The notes beneath the pieces are model-generated. The model was not told the origin of the DNA. It was given only the letters and a program-made list of their open reading frames with translations, and did not search any database. A program made the position numbers and the translations under genes. Below are positions 1 to 11,511 of a stretch of 11,511 nucleotides of DNA, piece after piece (the stretch's first letter is position 1; each line of letters opens with the position of its first letter). This DNA comes from a virus. Its lineage: Duplodnaviria; Heunggongvirae; Uroviricota; Caudoviricetes. The DNA is taken from positions 1-11,511 of IMG/VR virus record IMGVR_UViG_2579778919_000009, one strand, 5' to 3'.

Positions 1-495
1 GTGTCTGATTCTATGAGTTACGCTGTGCTAGTTGCCGCAACTCTATTTATGGGGATAGGGTTGCAGATTGCGTGGTTCTTTTTTTCTAGTTTTATTAAAC
101 GCAAAAGAATTGAATCAAGGATATCTGAGATTTCTATTGCTATAGGGAAAAATGCTGAAAATCCAGAGAATGAGGCCTGCGCACTGAATTACCTTAAAGA
201 AAAGTTTTCCCCTGAAAAATTTGAAAATAGAATTACTGATGCTCTTGGATTGGTAATATCAGTAATTCATATGCCACTAAGTTTGCTGATAACAGTGTGG
301 TACTTCGCCATGATCGCCGGAAGAATATTTGGTTTCATGAATATAGAGCCTGTAGTTCTTTGGGTTCCAATGATACTGCAACTGTTGTTAAGCGTTGCTA
401 TCTTTATTTTTTCTGTTTTTATAAAAATTGTCTTTGGAAGATACCCCGGAGAAGCTAAGGGATTTAATAAAGAATTCATAAAAACTATAAAATAA
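1..495 (+). CDS. Small AT-rich integral membrane protein (about 3 predicted TM helices); 5' end at or beyond window edge; possible moron / superinfection-exclusion-type gene
   Basis: ORF open from base 1 (GTG; first ATG at 13) to TAA at 493-495. Hydrophobic stretches [76 protein letters not shown]. Visibly AT-rich compared with the rest of the window. Convergent with the 613-aa virion protein gene. No family recognised by eye. Confidence 0.5.
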
Positions 496-517: not shown

Positions 518-2359
518 CTACTGCCGGGTCGCTTCGTTAGCTAAGAGCGGGCGCACGGCAGTAGCAGCCTGATTTAGCGCTCTTTCATAAGCTGGCGTTC
601 CAGCTTTAGTGTTTGCCAGACGTAAGAGCGCATTCCTTGCTGCTTTGGACTCATACAAACGCATCATTGCACCAAAACCAGCCTCAAGCCCCATTGATAC
701 TCCAAGAGTCGCAGTTGCGCCAATCGTCCTTATCCTGTTGGCTTGTGATTGCCCCGTCTGAGTTACTACATTTGCGGTGTCTGACCTTGCTGTTTGCTGT
801 AGAACTTCATGAAGAGCATCGAGCTCTTTCATGTGCTTTCCAGAAAAAATAGTGTTGTAAATTTCACCGCCTGACTGAGATTTAAGCTTATTAACTTCAG
901 TGATGAACTTGGCTGGAGAGTCACCGGCCTTTTCCGCTATTTTGCTGACGTAAGCTGCACGCATAGCATCTTTCCCTTTATCATCCAATGCGCTCCAGAT
1001 TCGTTTCACGTCAGATGGTTTTCTGCTTAATACAACGGTATTTATAAGTTCAGGACTGGCTTCACTGCTTGCCTTGTTGAGCTTGTTAGCAATGTTTTTA
1101 TTAAGCACCTTATTATAAACGTTTGCATAATCTGAATTTGCTTTAAGGTATTTTGCTGCGTCTGATGCACCGAGGTTTTTAGCAACTGCGTTACGAAGGT
1201 CTTTTGACATTGCATTCTCTACCATATTGGTAGCTGCTTTTGCCTGGTTGGGGAAGACCATAGCATCTCCCTGAACATTAGATCTAAATGCTGTTCTGTG
1301 CTGACGCAAGAGATCAAACGTAACATCCAAATCAGTTGCAGGGTTTGCTAATTCTTCGCGTAGGTTACGCAAGGATGTAAGCAGGCTTTGATTGGCAGAC
1401 GTCCCAAGCCGTTCCTGTCTTGCGATCGCTGTATTCAGAGCATTCATAGTGTTTGTGGTATCAACTGCGGCATTCCCCATTTTATTGGTGACGTCATTGA
1501 TAACAGCGCCAGCGGCATCCTTCCGTCCCCTTAACGTGGTGGTCAGAGATTTCACCACATCATCCGGGTTGTACTCACCAAAACGGTCAAAATAATTACT
1601 TACCAACTTACTACGCGTTGCATATTGCTCCGCTCGCTTTGAGCCTGTCCCGAGCAAAGCCCCCTCGGCATCCTGAGTAAGGCCGCGAGTGAAAGCATTT
1701 TTCGGCGGGATAACATCAGATGTCATTGGTGTCACGCCCATCGATTCTGATGTGGCAATTTTCTTCGCCACTTCTGGCGCAATATCACCTTTTATAGCCG
1801 TTATTCCACGCCCTATTCCCTTTGCTGCTGCGGAAAGAACCCCCTGAGCGGCAAGGTTAACTCCGGCATTTTTAGCTGCATTTTGTGCGAAATCGCCTTT
1901 CTGATTTGCGGCCTCTGCCAGTGATCCAATAGCCATGCTTCCTGCCGTTCCAACTCCTGGAACTAAATACCCACCAATTGTTTCACCGGCTTGTGCGTAT
2001 GGGTCTGTCGGTCTGTCTACTGGACGATAAACATCATCCAAAACCTTGGGTCCACCAAGCCCCTGACTGATTGCATTAATCAGACTTGCGCCGCCCTGCA
2101 ATACGTCAAATGGTATGTTTACCAGACCACGACCAGCCTGCTCTGCAATTTGCCCTGCACTTTGACCACCTGTGAGCCAATCGCCAGCTTGTTGCATCAA
2201 TGATGGTTCTTCACGTGCTGGTTCATTATTGGCCTGATTAACTGTTTGTTGCTGAACAGCCTGACCAGCAAAATACTCATCAATGGCGGTGCCAATATCT
2301 TCCGTGCTCGTACCATCAGGGAAGGTAAATGTCTTACCGTTTGCAGTTACTTTCATCAT
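518..2359 (-). CDS. Phage internal virion / DNA-ejection (DNA transfer) protein, P22 gp16-like, 613 aa
   Basis: Long ORF rich in Ala/Gly/Gln/Asn with a Gly/Ala-rich segment ([23 protein letters not shown]...). Size and position (after a gp20-like segment, before a small membrane protein gene) match the P22 gene 20 - gene 16 arrangement. Start ATG overlaps the upstream stop (ATGA), suggesting translational coupling. Family assignment is from memory, not a search. Confidence 0.6.
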
Positions 2360-3933
2360 TCCACCGTAAATTGAATGCCTGATTTTGAGGTATATGATCC
2401 GGATTGACTCTGCTGCTGTTGGGTATTTGTCGGTTGTTGGCTATTGCTCTGTTGTTGACTATTTGCAACACTTGAAACCACCAAAGCATCATAAACGCGA
2501 CCAGACTGACCACGTAATGAGTTATATTGGCCCTGCATTTTTCGCATTTTTGTTTCAGTAGCAGCCTTGGAATCACCAGGCTGAGGCAGGTACATTTTGG
2601 AATACTCCTGCATCTCTGGCAGAGTAATTGCTGCACCTGTTTCTGGGCGCAAAATTGCATACAAGGCGTCTCTCGCATTTACCATATATTGCTGCTCCGC
2701 TGGTGATAGGCTTAAATTTGCAATAGTCCCATCACCAAGAGAGCGATTTATTAATGCAACTCGCTTAGGGTCAATGCTTTTACTAAGCTGATTCATTGAG
2801 TCCATTGAATCTTTTAATCGCAAAGCAAATCCTGCCGCCTTCTTGGAACCCTCATTAGCCTTATCTATGATGCTTTGCGCTTGTGGCAAACTAATTGGTT
2901 TAATGCCATCACCAGATATAGGTTGGTTTAGTTTTCCGGCTTCCTCGCTGCCATCGGTGTAATACTTAGTTACCGAGCCATCAGGATTGGTTTCAACCTT
3001 AAGTAATTTCTTAGCATTGGGATTAATTCCCGCCGCTGCCGCAAATGCCGCTGCACCATCTGGATCCGCCTTTAACATTTGCGCGTACTGATTGTAATTC
3101 TGCATTGCGGCTGTTGGTGCATATGCTGACGTTAACGCATTTGCTCGGCTAATATCCTGCCCTCTCGCCTGAAGTGCTTCGCTGGCCTGATTGCTGCGGA
3201 TTGTCTCTGCCAGTCTGCCTCGGTCAATCTCACGACCAGCTATCTTGTCCTGAACAGCAAACGCCTTTTCTGGCCCAAGTGCACCGAGAGACATAGTAGT
3301 CAGCATGTGTGATAGCTGCTCTGGATTCTGGATACCTGTCTGAATCATCCAGTCAGCATTAGCCCCCACACGATTTAACCTGTCCTTGTTGTCAGTAATG
3401 AATTTACTGTAGGCTTCCGGTCCCTGAGAAAGAGCGACGTTAGCCCTCATGGCTAAATCGCCCATATCGTTGCGTTGCTGCTCATTAAGACCGGAAAACG
3501 CCTGTTGTGCCTGTGCAACAAACGCTGGATTTCCAGATCTGATACTGAGAACGTTTCGTCCAGCAACTGGAGAGAGTTCGACGGTGGCATCATTGCCCAT
3601 GCCGGAGGCGCTGGAGGTTTCGGCTGAGGATGGCACAGGGCATTTTCCTTTGACGAGCACCCTGCCACCATTATCAAGCTTGCGCCGAAGAGCATCATTT
3701 TCAGCTTTCGCATCAGCTAACTCCTTCGTGTATTTAGCATCGAGTGCATCAGCATCACGCTGGCGCTGCTGCATGTCAGTAATGGTGGCAGTCGCCTGCT
3801 TCAGCTCACTGACTTTTTTATCACGCTGCTCTTTGTAGGCGATGGCATTATCACGGTAATGATTGACCGCCCATGACAGGCAGACGATGATGCAGATAAC
3901 CAGAGCGGAGATAATCGCGGTGACTTTGCTCAT
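2356..3933 (-). CDS. Chimeric ORF: Rz-type i-spanin N-terminus (about 120 aa) fused in frame to about 400 aa of ejection-protein-like sequence (P22 gp20-like)
   Basis: N-terminus [30 protein letters not shown]...[19 protein letters not shown] closely matches lambda Rz as I recall it (TM anchor plus coiled coil). Rz is about 150 aa, but this ORF runs on for 525 aa with Ala/Gln/Asn/Ser-rich sequence and no Rz-like C-terminus. Rz start overlaps the R stop (ATGA). Confidence 0.6.
3453..3713 (-). CDS. Rz1-type o-spanin lipoprotein embedded in the +1 frame of Rz; C-terminus extended/altered by the same junction
   Basis: [22 protein letters not shown]... has a lipobox-like signal (VAGC) followed by a proline-rich [16 protein letters not shown] segment, as in lambda Rz1. 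It is 86 aa against about 60 for lambda Rz1; the tail after about residue 55 is unrelated. Confidence 0.55.
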
Positions 3934-4268
3934 ACCTCAACCTCTCTGACCGTTCCGCCTGCTTCTTTGAATTTTGCAATCAGGCTGTCAGCCTTATGCT
4001 CGAACTGACCATAACCAGCGCCCGGCAGTGAAGCCCAGATATTACTGCAACGGTCGATAGCCTGACGGATATCACCGCGATCAATCATCGGTAAAGCGCC
4101 ACGCTCTTTAATCTGCTGCAGTGCCACAGCGTCCTGGCTTTTCGGAGAGAAGTCTTTCAGTCCAAGCTGCTTACGGTAGGCATCCCACCAACGGGAAAGA
4201 AGCTGGTAACGTCCGGCGGCTGTTGATTTGAGTTTACAGGCATAACCCTGTACAACATCAGGAGGCAT
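3930..4268 (-). pseudogene. R: Endolysin R (lambda-type lytic transglycosylase) C-terminal fragment; N-terminal about 55 residues including the catalytic region missing
   Basis: KLKSTAAGRYQLLSRWWDAYRKQLGLKDFSPKSQDAVALQQIKERGALPMIDRGDIRQAIDRCSNIWASLPGAGYGQFEHKADSLIAKFKEAGGTVRE is near-identical to the C-terminal about 100 aa of lambda R from memory. The first 11 codons (MPPDVVQGYAC) are unrelated and are encoded by the sequence that forms the upstream/RBS region of the opposite-strand replication gene. Confidence 0.85.
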
Positions 4269-4273
4269 CCAGT

Positions 4274-5101
4274 ATGGGGTATGTCTCTATACACCGCCAG
4301 TTTATGGACAGCAGGCTCTATAAGGACTCTCAGGCAGTACATCTTTGGCTTCACTTAATCCTCAAGGCTAATCACGAATCTACTGTCGTCAATACGGATA
4401 TCGGTCCGATAACTGTTGATCGCGGTCAGATGATAACTGGACGCCCGTCGCTGGTCAGAGAAACATTCATCCCCGACAACAAAGTTCGGAGCTTATTACG
4501 GACTTTTGAGTCGAAAGGTATGCTTAATATTTGCTCGATGGGGAAGAAATTTAGCCTGTTTACAATCGTTAAATATGACGATTTTCAGGCAAAAAATTGT
4601 CCAACGGTTGTCCAACAGTTGTCCAACGCAAACACCAGTAATGGTGCGGCTCTCAGCGGAGATTGTCCAACGGTTGTCCAACGGTTGTCCATAAACAATA
4701 ATATAAATAATATCTCTAATACTGACGTATTAGAGAGTGCTACAGCAGACAAAAAGTCTGACAAGAAAAAACCTTCCGTCAGCTGTCAGGATGTTGTCGA
4801 TGCTTACCACGAAATCCTTCCTGAAGCGCCAAGAATCCGCGCACTGAATGACAAGCGTAAAAACCAGATCCGAACGTTCTGGCGCAAAGCCGGAGTGATA
4901 ACCCGCCAGCTTGACGGGCATGGGTTCACGATGCAGGACTGGAGAAATTATTTGAGCTACGTAGGCGAAAATTGCCGATGGATGTTCGAAGAGCGTCCAA
5001 ACCATCAACGCGGAACTGTCTGGCACAAAAAGGGATTTGATTTCCTGCTTAACGATAATACCTACCTGAAAGTTCGTGAGGGTGAACACGATGACCGATA
5101 A
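4274..5101 (+). CDS. Replication initiator protein (lambda O / P22 gp18 functional class) with origin iterons inside its coding sequence
   Basis: Good RBS (GGAGG about 8 nt upstream of ATG 4274). Origin-type iterons and an AT-rich region sit mid-gene, as in lambda O. The stop overlaps the start of the downstream helicase gene. Confidence 0.7.
   Translation: MGYVSIHRQFMDSRLYKDSQAVHLWLHLILKANHESTVVNTDIGPITVDRGQMITGRPSLVRETFIPDNKVRSLLRTFESKGMLNICSMGKKFSLFTIVKYDDFQAKNCPTVVQQLSNANTSNGAALSGDCPTVVQRLSINNNINNISNTDVLESATADKKSDKKKPSVSCQDVVDAYHEILPEAPRIRALNDKRKNQIRTFWRKAGVITRQLDGHGFTMQDWRNYLSYVGENCRWMFEERPNHQRGTVWHKKGFDFLLNDNTYLKVREGEHDDR
4597..4695. repeat. Origin iterons: two clusters of three tandem 11-bp repeats (TTGTCCAACGG / TTGTCCAACAG / TTGTCCAACGC, then TTGTCCAACGG x2 and a degenerate TTGTCCATAAA)
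   Basis: Direct tandem repeats read at about 4597-4629 and 4663-4695, separated by about 33 bp. They encode the repetitive linker CPTVVQQLSN...CPTVVQRLS of the initiator. Confidence 0.75.
4696..4740. other. AT-rich putative DNA-unwinding region with short palindrome CTCTAATA-N6-TATTAGAG next to the iterons
   Basis: Sequence ATAAACAATAATATAAATAATATCTCTAATACTGACGTATTAGAGAG lies immediately downstream of the iterons, the typical lambdoid ori layout. Confidence 0.5.
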
Positions 5102-6146
5102 TTTTTATGCGCCGCCCCATAGCATCGAGGCAGAGCAGGCGGTGATTGGTGGATTGCTTCTGGATGATGACAGCAGTGAGCGCGTCCAGAAGGTTCTGGC
5201 GATGCTGAAGCCTGATTCATTTTACAGCCGGCCACACAAAATCCTTTTCGAAGAAATAACCAGAATGCACCGGGAGCAAAAGCCAGTAGATGGCCTGACG
5301 CTTTTCGATGAACTGGAGCGTAAATCGTTAACTGTGTCTGTTGGCGGTTTTGCTTATATCGCTGAGATCGCAAAGAACACGCCAAGCGCAGCAAACATCG
5401 TTGCCTATGCAATGCAGGTTCGTGAAACCGCAATGGAACGCTACGCCATCAACCGTATGACTGAAGCGACGGAATTGCTCTATTCCCGCAACGGAATGAC
5501 TGCAACGCAGAAGTACGAAGCTATTCAGTCGATTTTCACGCAACTGACAGACCATGCAAAAACCGGATCGCGTCGCGGCCTTCGTTCATTTGGTGAGGTC
5601 ATGGAAGACTGGGTTAGCGACCTTGAGAAGCGATTTGACCCGTCAGGCGAACAACGAGGAATGAGCACAGGGATCCCATCGCTGGACAGGATGCTGTCAC
5701 CGAAAGGTCTGGTGAAAGGCTCTCTGTTTGTCATTGGCGCTCGCCCTAAGATGGGGAAAACGACGCTATACAGCCAGATGGCAATCAACTGCGCAGTGCA
5801 TGAGAAAAAGCCCGCTCTGATGTTCAGCCTTGAAATGCCAGGTGACCAGATACTGGAAAAACTGGTAGGGCAGAAGTCTGGTGTTAACCCGAATATTTTT
5901 TACCTTCCGGCGACAAATGACGCTGATGACGGCTATCAGGGTGATTACGATGGTGACTTCAACAGGGCGATCGAAACAGCCAATCGCTTGAGTGAAATCG
6001 ACCTGCTTTACATCGACGACACGCCGGGATTATCTCTGGCTCAAATCGTCAGCGAAAGTCGTCGAATCAAGCGAGAAAAAGGATGTGTTGGCATGATTCT
6101 GGTCGATTACAGGGAGAAGGCGCATGAGACTCGAAAGCGTAGCTAA
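5091..6146 (+). pseudogene. DnaB-family replicative helicase (P22 gp12 class), C-terminal about 110-120 aa missing
   Basis: N-terminal DnaB signature NFYAPPHSIEAEQAVIGGLLLD, Walker A GARPKMGKTT, Walker B-like MILVDY. The ORF stops about 10 codons after Walker B, with an unrelated tail (REKAHETRKRS) that overlaps the Q start region. Likely true start is ATG 5091 (the ORF track starts at 5076). Confidence 0.7.
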
Positions 6147-6603
6147 ATTTCATTCGCCAAAAAGCCCGATGATTAGCGACTCACCACGGGCTACAGCTTC
6201 TGACTCTCTTTCCGGTACTGATGTGATGGCTGCTATGGGGATGGCACAATCACAGGCCGGATTCGGGATGGCTGCATTTTGCGGTAAGCACGAACTCAGC
6301 CAGAACGACAAACAAAAGGCTATCAACTATCTGATGCAATTTGCACACAAGGTATCGGGGAAATACCGTGGTGTGGCAAAGCTCGAAGGAAATACTAAGG
6401 CAAAGGTACTGCAAGTGCTCGCAATATTCGCTTATGAGGATTATTGCCGTAGTGCCGCGACGCCGGGTGCAAGATGCAGAGATTGCCACGGTACAGGCCG
6501 TGCGGTTGATATAGCCAAAACGGAGCAGTGGGGGAGAGTTGTTGAGAAAGAGTGCGGAAGATGCAAAGGTGTCGGCTATTCAAGAATGCCAGCAATCAGC
6601 TAA
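6124..6603 (+). pseudogene. Q: Late-gene antiterminator Q (lambda Q type), C-terminal about 50 aa missing/replaced
   Basis: MRLESVAKFHSPKSPM...CRDCHGTGRAVDIAKTEQWGRVVEKECGRCKGVGYSRMP matches lambda Q from memory, including the CxxC...CxxC zinc motif. It ends after about 159 aa (lambda Q is about 207). No PR'/qut or holin follows. Confidence 0.75.
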
Positions 6604-6776: not shown

Positions 6777-6853
6777 GTAGATTGATCCAGTAATGACCTC
6801 AGAATTGCATATCAATTTGCTTAAAATCCTCGGTGGCGGCCGGGGATTTTTTC
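6777..6853 (+). ncRNA. oop: oop-like antisense RNA overlapping the 3' end of cII, ending in an intrinsic terminator
   Basis: GTAGATTGATCCAGTAATGACCTCAGAATTGCAT...CCTCGGTGGCGGCCGGGGATTTTTTC closely resembles lambda oop RNA as I recall it (the block GATCCAGTAATGACCTCAGAA appears identical). Terminal hairpin CCUCGG/CCGGGG plus U-tract. Antisense to the last about 18 codons of cII. Confidence 0.7.
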
Positions 6854-7095
6854 TTTGTGATTCCATCCAATGCATACTTAAAAGCCCTGCTAATCGGACT
6901 GATGTCTGATGCCATTCCGAAAGCACACAAGACCGAAGCAATAAACCTCCAGTCCGTTCTGCTTATCTTCGATTCATGACAGCCAATCATCTTTGCCAGA
7001 CCGCGCTGGGTAAGCGTTGACAGGTTGATGAGTAAATCAGTTTCAGCGCGATCAATTTCTCGCTGTGTTGGCTTGCTATAACTTGCTTGTGTCAT
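6799..7095 (-). CDS. cII: CII-family transcriptional activator
   Basis: HTH region (LAKMIGCHESKISRTDWRFI) and C-terminus (KKKSPAATEDFKQIDMQF) resemble lambda CII (KSQISRWKRDWI, NKKRPAATERSEQIQMEF). Sits downstream of cro and nutR, as in lambdoid phages. Confidence 0.8.
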   Translation of the reverse strand: MTQASYSKPTQREIDRAETDLLINLSTLTQRGLAKMIGCHESKISRTDWRFIASVLCAFGMASDISPISRAFKYALDGITKKKSPAATEDFKQIDMQF

Positions 7096-7106
7096 TTGTT
7101 AATTTT
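7073..7106 (+). promoter_or_regulatory. PRE-like CII-dependent promoter (TTGC-N6-TTGC around the -35 region, -10-like TAATTT), reading antisense through cro toward cI
   Basis: TTGCTATAACTTGC direct-repeat tetramers with 6-nt spacing lie inside the 5' end of cII on the opposite strand, the same layout as lambda PRE. Confidence 0.45.
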
Positions 7107-7179
7107 CCAATAGTGAATAGTTAGTTGAAAGGTATGCGTGGAAACGCATATGGCCTTAGTTGGTCAGATATCTTGGGGC

Positions 7180-7225
7180 TCGCTTTGTCAGCGACGTAGG
7201 ACGAATGTCCATTGTGAAAAGAGCG
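7180..7225 (-). promoter_or_regulatory. nutR: boxA (CGCTCTTTT) followed by a boxB hairpin of the P22 type (loop GACAAA)
   Basis: On the - strand, just downstream of the cro stop: CGCTCTTTTCACAATGGACATTCGTCCTACGTCGCTGACAAAGCGAGC. The boxB stem-loop matches the P22-type GCGCUGACAAAGCGC rather than lambda GCCCUGAAAAAGGGC. A 7-bp stem hairpin at about 7133-7150 may be part of tR1. Confidence 0.55.
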
Positions 7226-7232
7226 GTGTTAC

Positions 7233-7433
7233 TTATGCAGTTGTTTTTTTGTTACTTGGGAAGGGCTTTATTTCTTCCGCATAAACGCTTCCATCAGCGT
7301 TTATAGTTAAAAAAATCTTTCGGCCTGCATGAATGGCCTTGTTAATCGCGCTTTGATATACGCCGAGATCTTTAGCCGTCTTGGTTTGCCCAAAGCGTAT
7401 TGCATAATCTTTCAGGGTTATGCGTTGTTCCAT
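7233..7433 (-). CDS. cro: Cro repressor
   Basis: 66-aa product [66 protein letters not shown] is essentially lambda Cro (one or two substitutions, from memory). Confidence 0.95.
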
Positions 7434-8247
<814 letters not shown>

Positions 8248-8278: not shown

Positions 8279-8620
8279 ATGACACAATTTCAACTTGCAT
8301 TAATCGCTAGAGAAGTTGATGGAGAAGTCATCCATCTTCGCACCAAAGACGGATACATCAATGCCACCGCGATGTGCAAGTCTGCGGGGAAGCTACTTGC
8401 TGACTATACACGACTAAAAACAACACAAGATTTTTTTGATGAATTATCACGCGATATGGGGATTCCCATATCGGAGTTAATTCAATCATTTAAAGGCGGA
8501 AGAGCAGAGAATCAAGGGACTTGGGTTCATCCAGACATCGCAATTAATTTAGCTCAGTGGCTATCTCCAAAATTTGCAGTGCAAGTATCGAGATGGGTGC
8601 GTGAGTGGATGTCAGGTTAA
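8279..8620 (+). CDS. KilA-N domain protein (113 aa) in the rexA/rexB position, co-transcribed with cI
   Basis: YINATAMCKSAGK...ENQGTWVHPDIAINLAQWLSPKFAVQVSRWV fits the KilA-N domain pattern as I recall it. SD AGGATGA upstream of the ATG; only about 31 nt separate it from the cI stop, with no terminator between. Confidence 0.65.
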   Translation: MTQFQLALIAREVDGEVIHLRTKDGYINATAMCKSAGKLLADYTRLKTTQDFFDELSRDMGIPISELIQSFKGGRAENQGTWVHPDIAINLAQWLSPKFAVQVSRWVREWMSG

Positions 8621-8659
8621 AGAGCGCCTGCCGAACTCCCTATCCACCTTAAGCGGTAT

Positions 8660-8965
8660 ATGACAAACCGAGGCAGAGTTCCTCATACGCACTTTTCTAT
8701 GCTTAATGAACTGACGTTTAACTTGGTTGCGCCACTTGAACAGGCCGGATATACGCTGCCAGAAAAAATGGTCCCTGATATTTCAGAGGGTAGGGTTTTC
8801 TCGCAATGGCTCCGTGACAACCGGGGGGTTGAGCCGAAGACATTCCCAACATATAACCATGAGTACCCAGATGGCCGGACATTCCCGGTACGTCTATACC
8901 CAAACGAATATTGCAGATTTCAAACAATACTTCAACGAAGTGTGGCTGCCTCAGTACGCTCCTAA
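8660..8965 (+). CDS. Hypothetical protein, in the same frame as the KilA-N ORF and separated from it by a single TAA; probable frameshift near 8890-8910, after which the alternative frame continues to 9038
   Basis: 8279 and 8660 are in the same frame, with 13 sense codons and one TAA (8618-8620) between them. Weak RBS before 8660. The overlapping ORF 8727..9038 has a protein-like C-terminus (NIADFKQYFNEVWLPQYAPKYFAERDQRALTLIEKIML). Confidence 0.45.
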   Translation: MTNRGRVPHTHFSMLNELTFNLVAPLEQAGYTLPEKMVPDISEGRVFSQWLRDNRGVEPKTFPTYNHEYPDGRTFPVRLYPNEYCRFQTILQRSVAASVRS

Positions 8966-9047
8966 ATATTTTGCTGAACGAGACCAAAGGGCATTGACGT
9001 TGATTGAGAAAATCATGCTACCTGACCTTGATTCCTAAATGTTATTC

Positions 9048-10985: not shown

Positions 10986-11511
10986 TGACGAATACCTGAA
11001 AATTTATCAAGCAGCAGAATCATCACCATGTTGGCTCAGACTTGCAATGGAACTGGCTGTTGTTACCGGGCAGCGAGTTGGTGATTTATGCGAAATGAAG
11101 TGGTCTGATATCGTAGATGGATATCTTTATGTCGAGCAAAGCAAAACAGGCGTAAAAATTGCCATCCCAACAACATTGCATGTTGATGCTCTCGGGATAT
11201 CAATGAAGGAAACACTTGATAAATGCAAAGAGATTCTTGGCGGAGAAACCATAATTGCATCTACTCGTCGTGAACCGCTTTCATCCGGCACAGTATCAAG
11301 GTATTTTATGCGCGCACGAAAAGCATCAGGTCTTTCCTTCGAAGGGGATCCGCCTACCTTTCACGAGTTGCGCAGTTTGTCTGCAAGACTCTATGAGAAG
11401 CAGATAAGCGATAAGTTTGCTCAACATCTTCTCGGGCATAAGTCGGACACCATGGCATCACAGTATCGTGATGACAGAGGCAGGGAGTGGGACAAAATTG
11501 AAATCAAATAA
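10903..11511 (+). pseudogene. int: Integrase (lambda Int type), catalytic domain only; N-terminal arm-binding and core-binding domains deleted; no xis
   Basis: Int frame open from 10903: ...GHITTNPVAATRAAKSEVRRSRLTADEYLKIYQAAESSPCWLRLAMELAVVTGQRVGDL...HELRSLSARLYEKQ...HKSDTMASQYRDDRGREWDKIEIK. This is near-identical to lambda Int residues about 168-356 from memory and keeps the catalytic residues, but about 170 N-terminal residues are absent. Confidence 0.9.

Follow-up and report, generated by a model that had tools for sequence, protein, structure and literature searches.

The window, by which we mean the whole stretch of 11,511 nt that was analysed, opens with an open reading frame on the plus strand (positions 1-495) comprising 164 codons, with a GTG start at base 1, an alternative in-frame ATG at base 13 and a TAA stop at 493-495. 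The GC content of this frame is 35.2% (GC3 31.5%), compared with 46.6% for the remaining window, and it jumps to 48.3% in the 495 nt directly after the gene. The frame is the lowest-GC 495-nt stretch in the window, and only 0.06% of the 495-nt sliding windows are equally low. On the opposite strand lies a homologue of P22 gene 16 (518-2359, minus strand), which encodes an ejection/DNA-transfer protein of 613 aa (phrog_770, E 2.4e-280; label PF26808 Phage_P22_gp16) that is 76% identical in amino acid sequence to P22 gp16 over its full length. The two genes are convergent, and their stop codons are 22 nt apart (spacer 496-517). The initial annotation, made from the sequence alone, had described a sharp shift to AT-rich composition over a gene for a small multi-pass membrane protein, convergent with the virion genes, and the composition, the gene order and the hydropathy of the product (see below) all bear this out.

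The spacer between the convergent stop codons holds no canonical intrinsic terminator: a terminator scan of 496-517 gave none, and the single match, at 589-606, is located inside gene 16. A hairpin at approximately 517-566 is also mostly inside gene 16, and the predicted fold of 480-610 is not unusual when compared with shuffled sequences (z = -1.69). Across the whole window, Rfam at gathering thresholds returned nothing, and tRNA genes were not found. A 70-aa antisense open reading frame at 267-479 was set aside as spurious, because it lies wholly within the conserved coding sequence of the first gene.

In the product of the first gene, the Kyte-Doolittle 19-residue mean exceeds 1.6 in three hydrophobic stretches: residues ~8-28 (positions 22-84; means 1.65-2.03), residues ~81-105 (241-315; 1.7-2.2) and residues ~118-146 (352-438), the last being the most hydrophobic, with values up to 2.58. 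The first stretch is followed by a basic sequence, KRKR, at residues 33-36. AlphaFold, run on the single sequence, gave an all-helical model whose helices span the hydrophobic stretches (helix 71-109 includes the second stretch, and helix 117-147 corresponds to the third); because of its low confidence (pLDDT 67, pTM 0.43), we take the model as weak support. Lysine and arginine residues are distributed unevenly, with none in the N-terminus, ten in loop 1, one in loop 2 and five in the C-terminal tail. This distribution fits a three-pass topology with the N-terminus out and the C-terminus in, which would expose merely ~7 and 12 residues to the periplasm. The motif FxRYPxEAxxFNK, found by regular-expression match at residues 145-157 (positions 433-471), would then be cytoplasmic. 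The motif is the best-conserved element across types A, B and C of the superinfection exclusion protein SieA, and is predicted to be cytoplasmic in that family (Leavitt et al., mBio 2024; PMC10883804).

Upstream of the gene 16 homologue in its own reading direction, an in-frame fusion of 525 aa (2356-3933, minus strand) joins the N-terminus of an Rz-type spanin (residues ~1-136) to the gene 20 ejection protein from residue ~100 to the C-terminus (the distal four-fifths). Both parts are recognized by Pfam (Phage_lysis at residues 29-142, Inj_translocase at 130-262) and by PHROGs (phrog_13 and phrog_917), and from window base 3532 onward the sequence is no longer collinear with the intact Combat2C1 prophage. 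The Rz::gp20 fusion is the trace of a deletion in which the terminase, portal, scaffold and coat genes were lost, as well as the genes for gp4, gp10, gp26, gp14 and gp7. Since all packaging, head and tail-hub genes are gone, the prophage is defective. The exact fusion protein recurs on 133 contigs and served as the marker by which the source locus was located.

A 3' fragment of a lysozyme gene (3930-4268, minus strand) abuts a plus-strand block (4274-6603) that encodes a shortened Q antiterminator in addition to a replication initiator and a DnaB-type helicase; the nin region that would separate helicase and Q is absent. Relative to cII/cro (6799-7433, minus strand) and the lysis genes, the block is inverted. 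A search for inverted repeats at the ends of the block gave short, chance-level pairs and no long ones. Alongside cro/cII lies an intact gene for a lambda-like cI repressor of 237 aa (7534-8247, plus strand) with HTH_3 and Peptidase_S24 domains, which we take to be nearly identical to lambda cI. Directly downstream of cI, at 8279-9038 on the plus strand, there is an apparent broken gene of the BstA abortive-infection type, consisting of a 113-aa KilA-N open reading frame and two overlapping frames, which match the PADLOC BstA profile at 160-226 (E 4e-12) and 236-272 (E 8e-4). Phage PhiR5_2, whose DNA is 97.3% identical, has a single 253-aa frame in this region. A 154-aa C-terminal integrase fragment (11047-11511, plus strand), which presumably resembles the C-terminus of lambda Int, ends the window at its stop codon. 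The window thus runs from the start codon of the first gene to the stop codon of the int fragment, and seems to have been cut along gene borders.

The window is 99.99% identical to positions 13933 to 2423 of a source locus from Escherichia coli (L003), and five similar E. coli assemblies were found (L004-L008). In E. coli, it is part of a prophage remnant of 16.5 kb located between ybhC and ybhB/bioA, the lambda attB site. Exact lambda att cores, GCTTTTTTATACTAA, flank the remnant at both ends, 16.5 kb apart (2334-2348 and 18814-18828 in L004). The location and the two core copies together identify a defective prophage at lambda attB. The lambda-type parts of the remnant are the int fragment and the cI/cro/cII region, with a scrambled replication/Q block in addition, and the P22-type parts are genes 20' and 16, sieA, mnt, arc, ant and the tailspike gene.

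The initial annotation had placed the AT-rich gene at the edge of the remnant and had suggested that the locus may continue upstream with more cargo. The first point does not hold, as the remnant runs for a further ~4.9 kb upstream of the gene, to the attR core; the second does. A 217-nt spacer (32.7% GC) is followed by orf193, mnt, arc, ant and a 672-aa tailspike gene, an arrangement shared by L004, L005, L007 and L008, where the tailspike contains a Head_binding domain. The gene at 1-495 therefore sits between homologues of genes 16 and 9, as is expected for sieA. The frame that we call orf193 (193 aa, 38.5% GC; 14151-14732, minus strand, in L003 and L004) lies between mnt and sieA, overlaps the mnt stop codon by 4 nt and stands in the place of P22 orf59a. 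The intact Combat2C1 prophage has it too, as does E. coli strain 81. Searches with its product gave phrog_23516, a PHROG labelled as of unknown function, and nothing in Pfam or PADLOC; the frame is a candidate for a further moron.

Among 5,426 complete E. coli genomes, the complete arrangement of the remnant occurs in none, and type A sieA occurs in 35 (0.6%), where it is often labelled ‘hypothetical protein’.

Several lines of evidence identify the frame at 1-495 as sieA. It is 94.9% identical in nucleotide sequence, across 495 of 495 nt, to sieA of P22 and of the 40 other P22-like Salmonella phage records that matched, and the encoded protein is 92.1% identical to P22 SieA (151 of 164 residues); the 13 substitutions are all located outside the motif core, mostly in TM1 and the cytoplasmic loop. 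The PHROG profile phrog_7745 (‘superinfection exclusion SieA-like’) matched residues 1-164 of 164 with an E value of 9.2e-109. The identical gene in the source loci (L003) carries the precomputed Pfam label PF26849:SIEA, and this very protein is listed by NCBI as ‘superinfection exclusion protein A [Escherichia coli]’ and occurs on hundreds of contigs. Other libraries are silent: a Pfam-A scan gave sub-threshold noise (Kri1, DUF6161) with a model set that did not include SIEA, NCBIfam had no matching model, and PADLOC-DB v2, a library from which SieA is absent, had no matching family at E <= 0.01. These blanks reflect library content and are no evidence against the assignment, which accordingly rests on P22 homology, PHROGs and the precomputed Pfam label. 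Similarity of the product to host genes was not found. A SieA peptide-pattern scan of genome contigs (one genome per species) revealed no relative and is uninformative about taxonomic spread. Neither the housekeeping homology nor the flat GC profile that the initial annotation had named as counter-evidence was thus observed, and its proposal of a superinfection-exclusion or moron gene in the slot that follows gene 16 in P22-like phages can be narrowed to a specific gene.

The gene is also complete. In the initial annotation the frame was considered truncated by the window edge, which proved incorrect. The GTG at base 1 is the start codon of P22 sieA, whose annotated coding sequence has the same limits as the window frame. 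In a nucleotide comparison with 41 phage records (P22 and 40 other P22-like Salmonella phage records), all 41 align to bases 1-495, as do 35 of 36 E. coli records, the exception being an IS-split copy in strain 81 that aligns to bases 1-306. What the window edge removes is the ribosome-binding site and the promoter region, and no coding sequence. With more than 90% identity to the P22 protein and no N-terminal extension, the product is a SieA of type A. We conclude with high confidence that positions 1-495 are an intact type A sieA, carried in E. coli by a lambda/P22 hybrid prophage that is itself defective. The observation is genuine, but the gene is not new: the exact protein had been named by NCBI, and the differences from P22 sieA leave the kind of gene unchanged.

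The main alternative concerns the function of the gene, not its identity: this copy could be a silent relic, a genuine sieA frame that is no longer expressed or useful, and that is intact only since the remnant is young. We consider this possible, but on balance not the probable state. The E. coli copies become homologous to P22 DNA just 17-23 nt upstream of the sieA GTG, with the mosaic boundary at the ribosome-binding site. The region that holds the putative promoter PsieA in P22 has no homologue upstream of E. coli sieA (unrelated beyond about -20 nt), and a scan for sigma-70-like consensus sequences on the sieA strand of the 217-nt spacer found no site, both of which are consistent with a silent gene. 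Moreover, an intact frame is in itself no proof of selection, because gene 16 and the Rz::gp20 fusion, which are useless in a headless prophage, are intact as well. The six sampled copies of the remnant show no differences in sieA, which suggests that the remnant is too young for selection to have left a trace.

Insertion sequences have affected sieA or its upstream region in two cases. E. coli strain 81 (NZ_CP088131.1; L009 9001-10718) carries a different P22-like remnant, at the argW/intS site, in which sieA is 100% identical over bases 1-306 and is then split by ISSen4, indicating that the gene is dispensable and open to loss by IS disruption. In one variant of the present remnant (L006, 13934-15083; GCA_900450495.1), the end of an IS5-type element lies 23 nt before the sieA GTG, at a CTAG directly ahead of the ribosome-binding site; everything further upstream, from orf193 through the tailspike gene, is deleted, and sieA is intact. 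Both cases count in favour of a silent relic.

Other observations argue against a silent relic. The Shine-Dalgarno sequence (AAGAGG) and the start codon of sieA are conserved, and the dN/dS of the gene relative to P22 sieA is 0.29, which points to purifying selection on the lineage leading to the present allele. The genes mnt, orf193 and sieA are co-directional, and terminator prediction between orf193 and sieA gave none (in P22, a clear hairpin with a T-run follows orf59a), so that read-through from the mnt promoter (Pmnt) is possible. Furthermore, P22 sieA needs low expression only, and it works in E. coli (PMC10883804). Judged from the sequence, the present copy may be expressed, either from a promoter of its own or by read-through from Pmnt via orf193.

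In a further-reaching scenario, sieA would have been retained in the headless prophage at lambda attB as a functional defence of the host, with its expression rewired: it would be transcribed third in an mnt-orf193-sieA operon or, in L006, driven by IS5. The orf193 product might then be a partner of SieA or a second exclusion factor, and with the lambda-type cI, which may still give repressor immunity besides SieA exclusion, the remnant would amount to a domesticated anti-phage island. We give this scenario a modest probability.

Regarding the extent of the gene, the true product could be a 188-aa protein that is initiated 72 nt upstream of the window, again at a GTG, in which case the window would hold a truncated gene with an extension like those of types B and C. 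The sieA frame is indeed open for 31 codons upstream of the window, with one GTG, at codon -24, and the 188-aa version is called by PGAP and other gene callers in Combat2C1 and several source loci. However, the 24 additional residues (VRNLVLSIRISYRDKVTRKTKEVG) are not hydrophobic, whereas the extensions of types B and C hold an extra transmembrane segment. The upstream frames of P22 and E. coli sieA are unrelated, save for the last 6 residues, which overlap the ribosome-binding site. A good Shine-Dalgarno sequence precedes the window GTG by 6-7 nt in both (AAGGAGG in P22, AAGAGG in the E. coli copies), and none is evident before the upstream GTG. The active P22 construct had only 85 bp of upstream DNA (PMC10883804), too little to include any of the in-frame start codons that lie upstream in P22. 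Finally, the IS5 insertion in L006 destroys the 188-aa extension, and sieA is called there at 164 aa. We therefore rejected the 188-aa product as very unlikely. For P22 SieA itself, the published length is ‘162 or 164 aa’ (PMC10883804), and the ATG at base 13 is an alternative start to the GTG. That the frame at 1-495 encodes a different small membrane protein in the moron slot after gene 16, such as an Abi-type toxin, a holin-like protein or a host housekeeping protein, would agree with the lack of a significant family in PADLOC, NCBIfam and the scanned Pfam set, but is exceedingly improbable and effectively refuted by the near-identity to the characterised P22 SieA over the full length, by the family motif and by the absence of similarity to any host gene, while the little or no effect of chromosomal P22 sieA on cell growth (PMC10883804) argues against a toxin.

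The intact type A sieA of the remnant shares with its P22 counterpart (Leavitt et al., 2024; PMC10883804) the length of 164 codons, the three hydrophobic segments, the motif at residues 145-157, the GTG start with a conserved ribosome-binding site, the convergent arrangement with gene 16 and a low GC content (33.7% in P22, 35.2% in the window). In P22, genes 7 and 20 precede gene 16, and orf59a, mnt, arc, ant and the tailspike gene 9 lie on the opposite side of sieA. Besides the 13 substitutions, the differences lie in the context. The host is E. coli and not Salmonella, sieA is carried by a defective prophage whose int, att and cI are of lambda type, the DNA upstream of -20 is unrelated to that of P22, orf193 replaces orf59a between mnt and sieA, and among the ejection proteins gp16 has diverged and the C-terminal region of gp20 is unrelated.

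Type B SieA (prophage HS1 of E. coli HS) and type C SieA (Providencia, Proteus and Morganella) belong to the same family, occupy the same slot and have the same C-terminal motif; type B has the same exclusion spectrum as type A (PMC10883804). According to the published descriptions, types B and C are set apart by 30 to 40 additional N-terminal residues with an extra transmembrane segment, which the window protein does not have. HK97 gp15, Lactococcus Sie2009 and Streptococcus Ltp are likewise phage- or prophage-encoded membrane proteins that block DNA entry by related phages, with escape mutations in conduit or tape-measure proteins (PMC10883804). All of these, as well as T4 Imm and Sp discussed below, act on long-tailed or T4-like phages and not on P22-like short-tailed phages, and a sequence relationship to SieA was not detected. 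Imm and Sp of phage T4 are comparable phage-encoded membrane proteins that block DNA entry.

The function of the P22 protein has been studied experimentally. When sieA was present in one chromosomal copy together with the 85 bp preceding it, P22 plated at least 10^7-fold less efficiently, lysogenisation dropped 10^5-fold, and the K+ release that marks DNA entry was abolished (PMC10883804). FLAG-tagged P22 SieA, for which three transmembrane domains are predicted, was found exclusively in the inner membrane by fractionation and immunoblotting; it acts on P22-like phages only and functions in E. coli; and escape mutations map to gp16 and gp20 (PMC10883804). The authors proposed that SieA acts on the gp20/gp16 conduit at the inner membrane by disturbing its assembly or function, or alternatively that SieA masks a host factor such as YajC (PMC10883804).

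By homology with P22 SieA, we hypothesize that the window protein, of ~19 kDa, would be located in the inner membrane of the lysogen. With three predicted transmembrane segments and a periplasmic N-terminus according to the positive-inside rule, loop 29-80 and the C-terminal tail with the motif would face the cytoplasm. In the inner membrane, SieA would interfere with assembly or function of the trans-envelope conduit formed by the ejection proteins gp20 and gp16. DNA entry would thereby be halted for P22-like short-tailed phages that superinfect the lysogen, and for the transducing particles of these phages, with other phage types unaffected. From the N-out, C-in topology we infer that contact of SieA with the membrane-inserted end of gp16 is more plausible than contact with the periplasmic gp20. 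When the published escape positions are mapped onto the ejection proteins of the remnant, G532 of gp16 is conserved in the window and P546 is replaced by Ala; the gp20 positions cannot be mapped reliably, because the C-terminal region of the window gp20 is not homologous to that of P22.

The importance of the identification beyond correct annotation is small, and it reveals no new biological principle. It gives an experimentally grounded function to an AT-rich gene that carries the label ‘hypothetical protein’ in many of the 35 complete E. coli genomes. If expressed, sieA would shield the host although the prophage can make no virions, and a defective prophage at lambda attB may thus still protect E. 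coli from P22-like phages, such as HK620, CUS-3 and relatives of Sf6. The presence of sieA in such a remnant is therefore relevant to the prediction of phage host range and to the choice of therapeutic phages.
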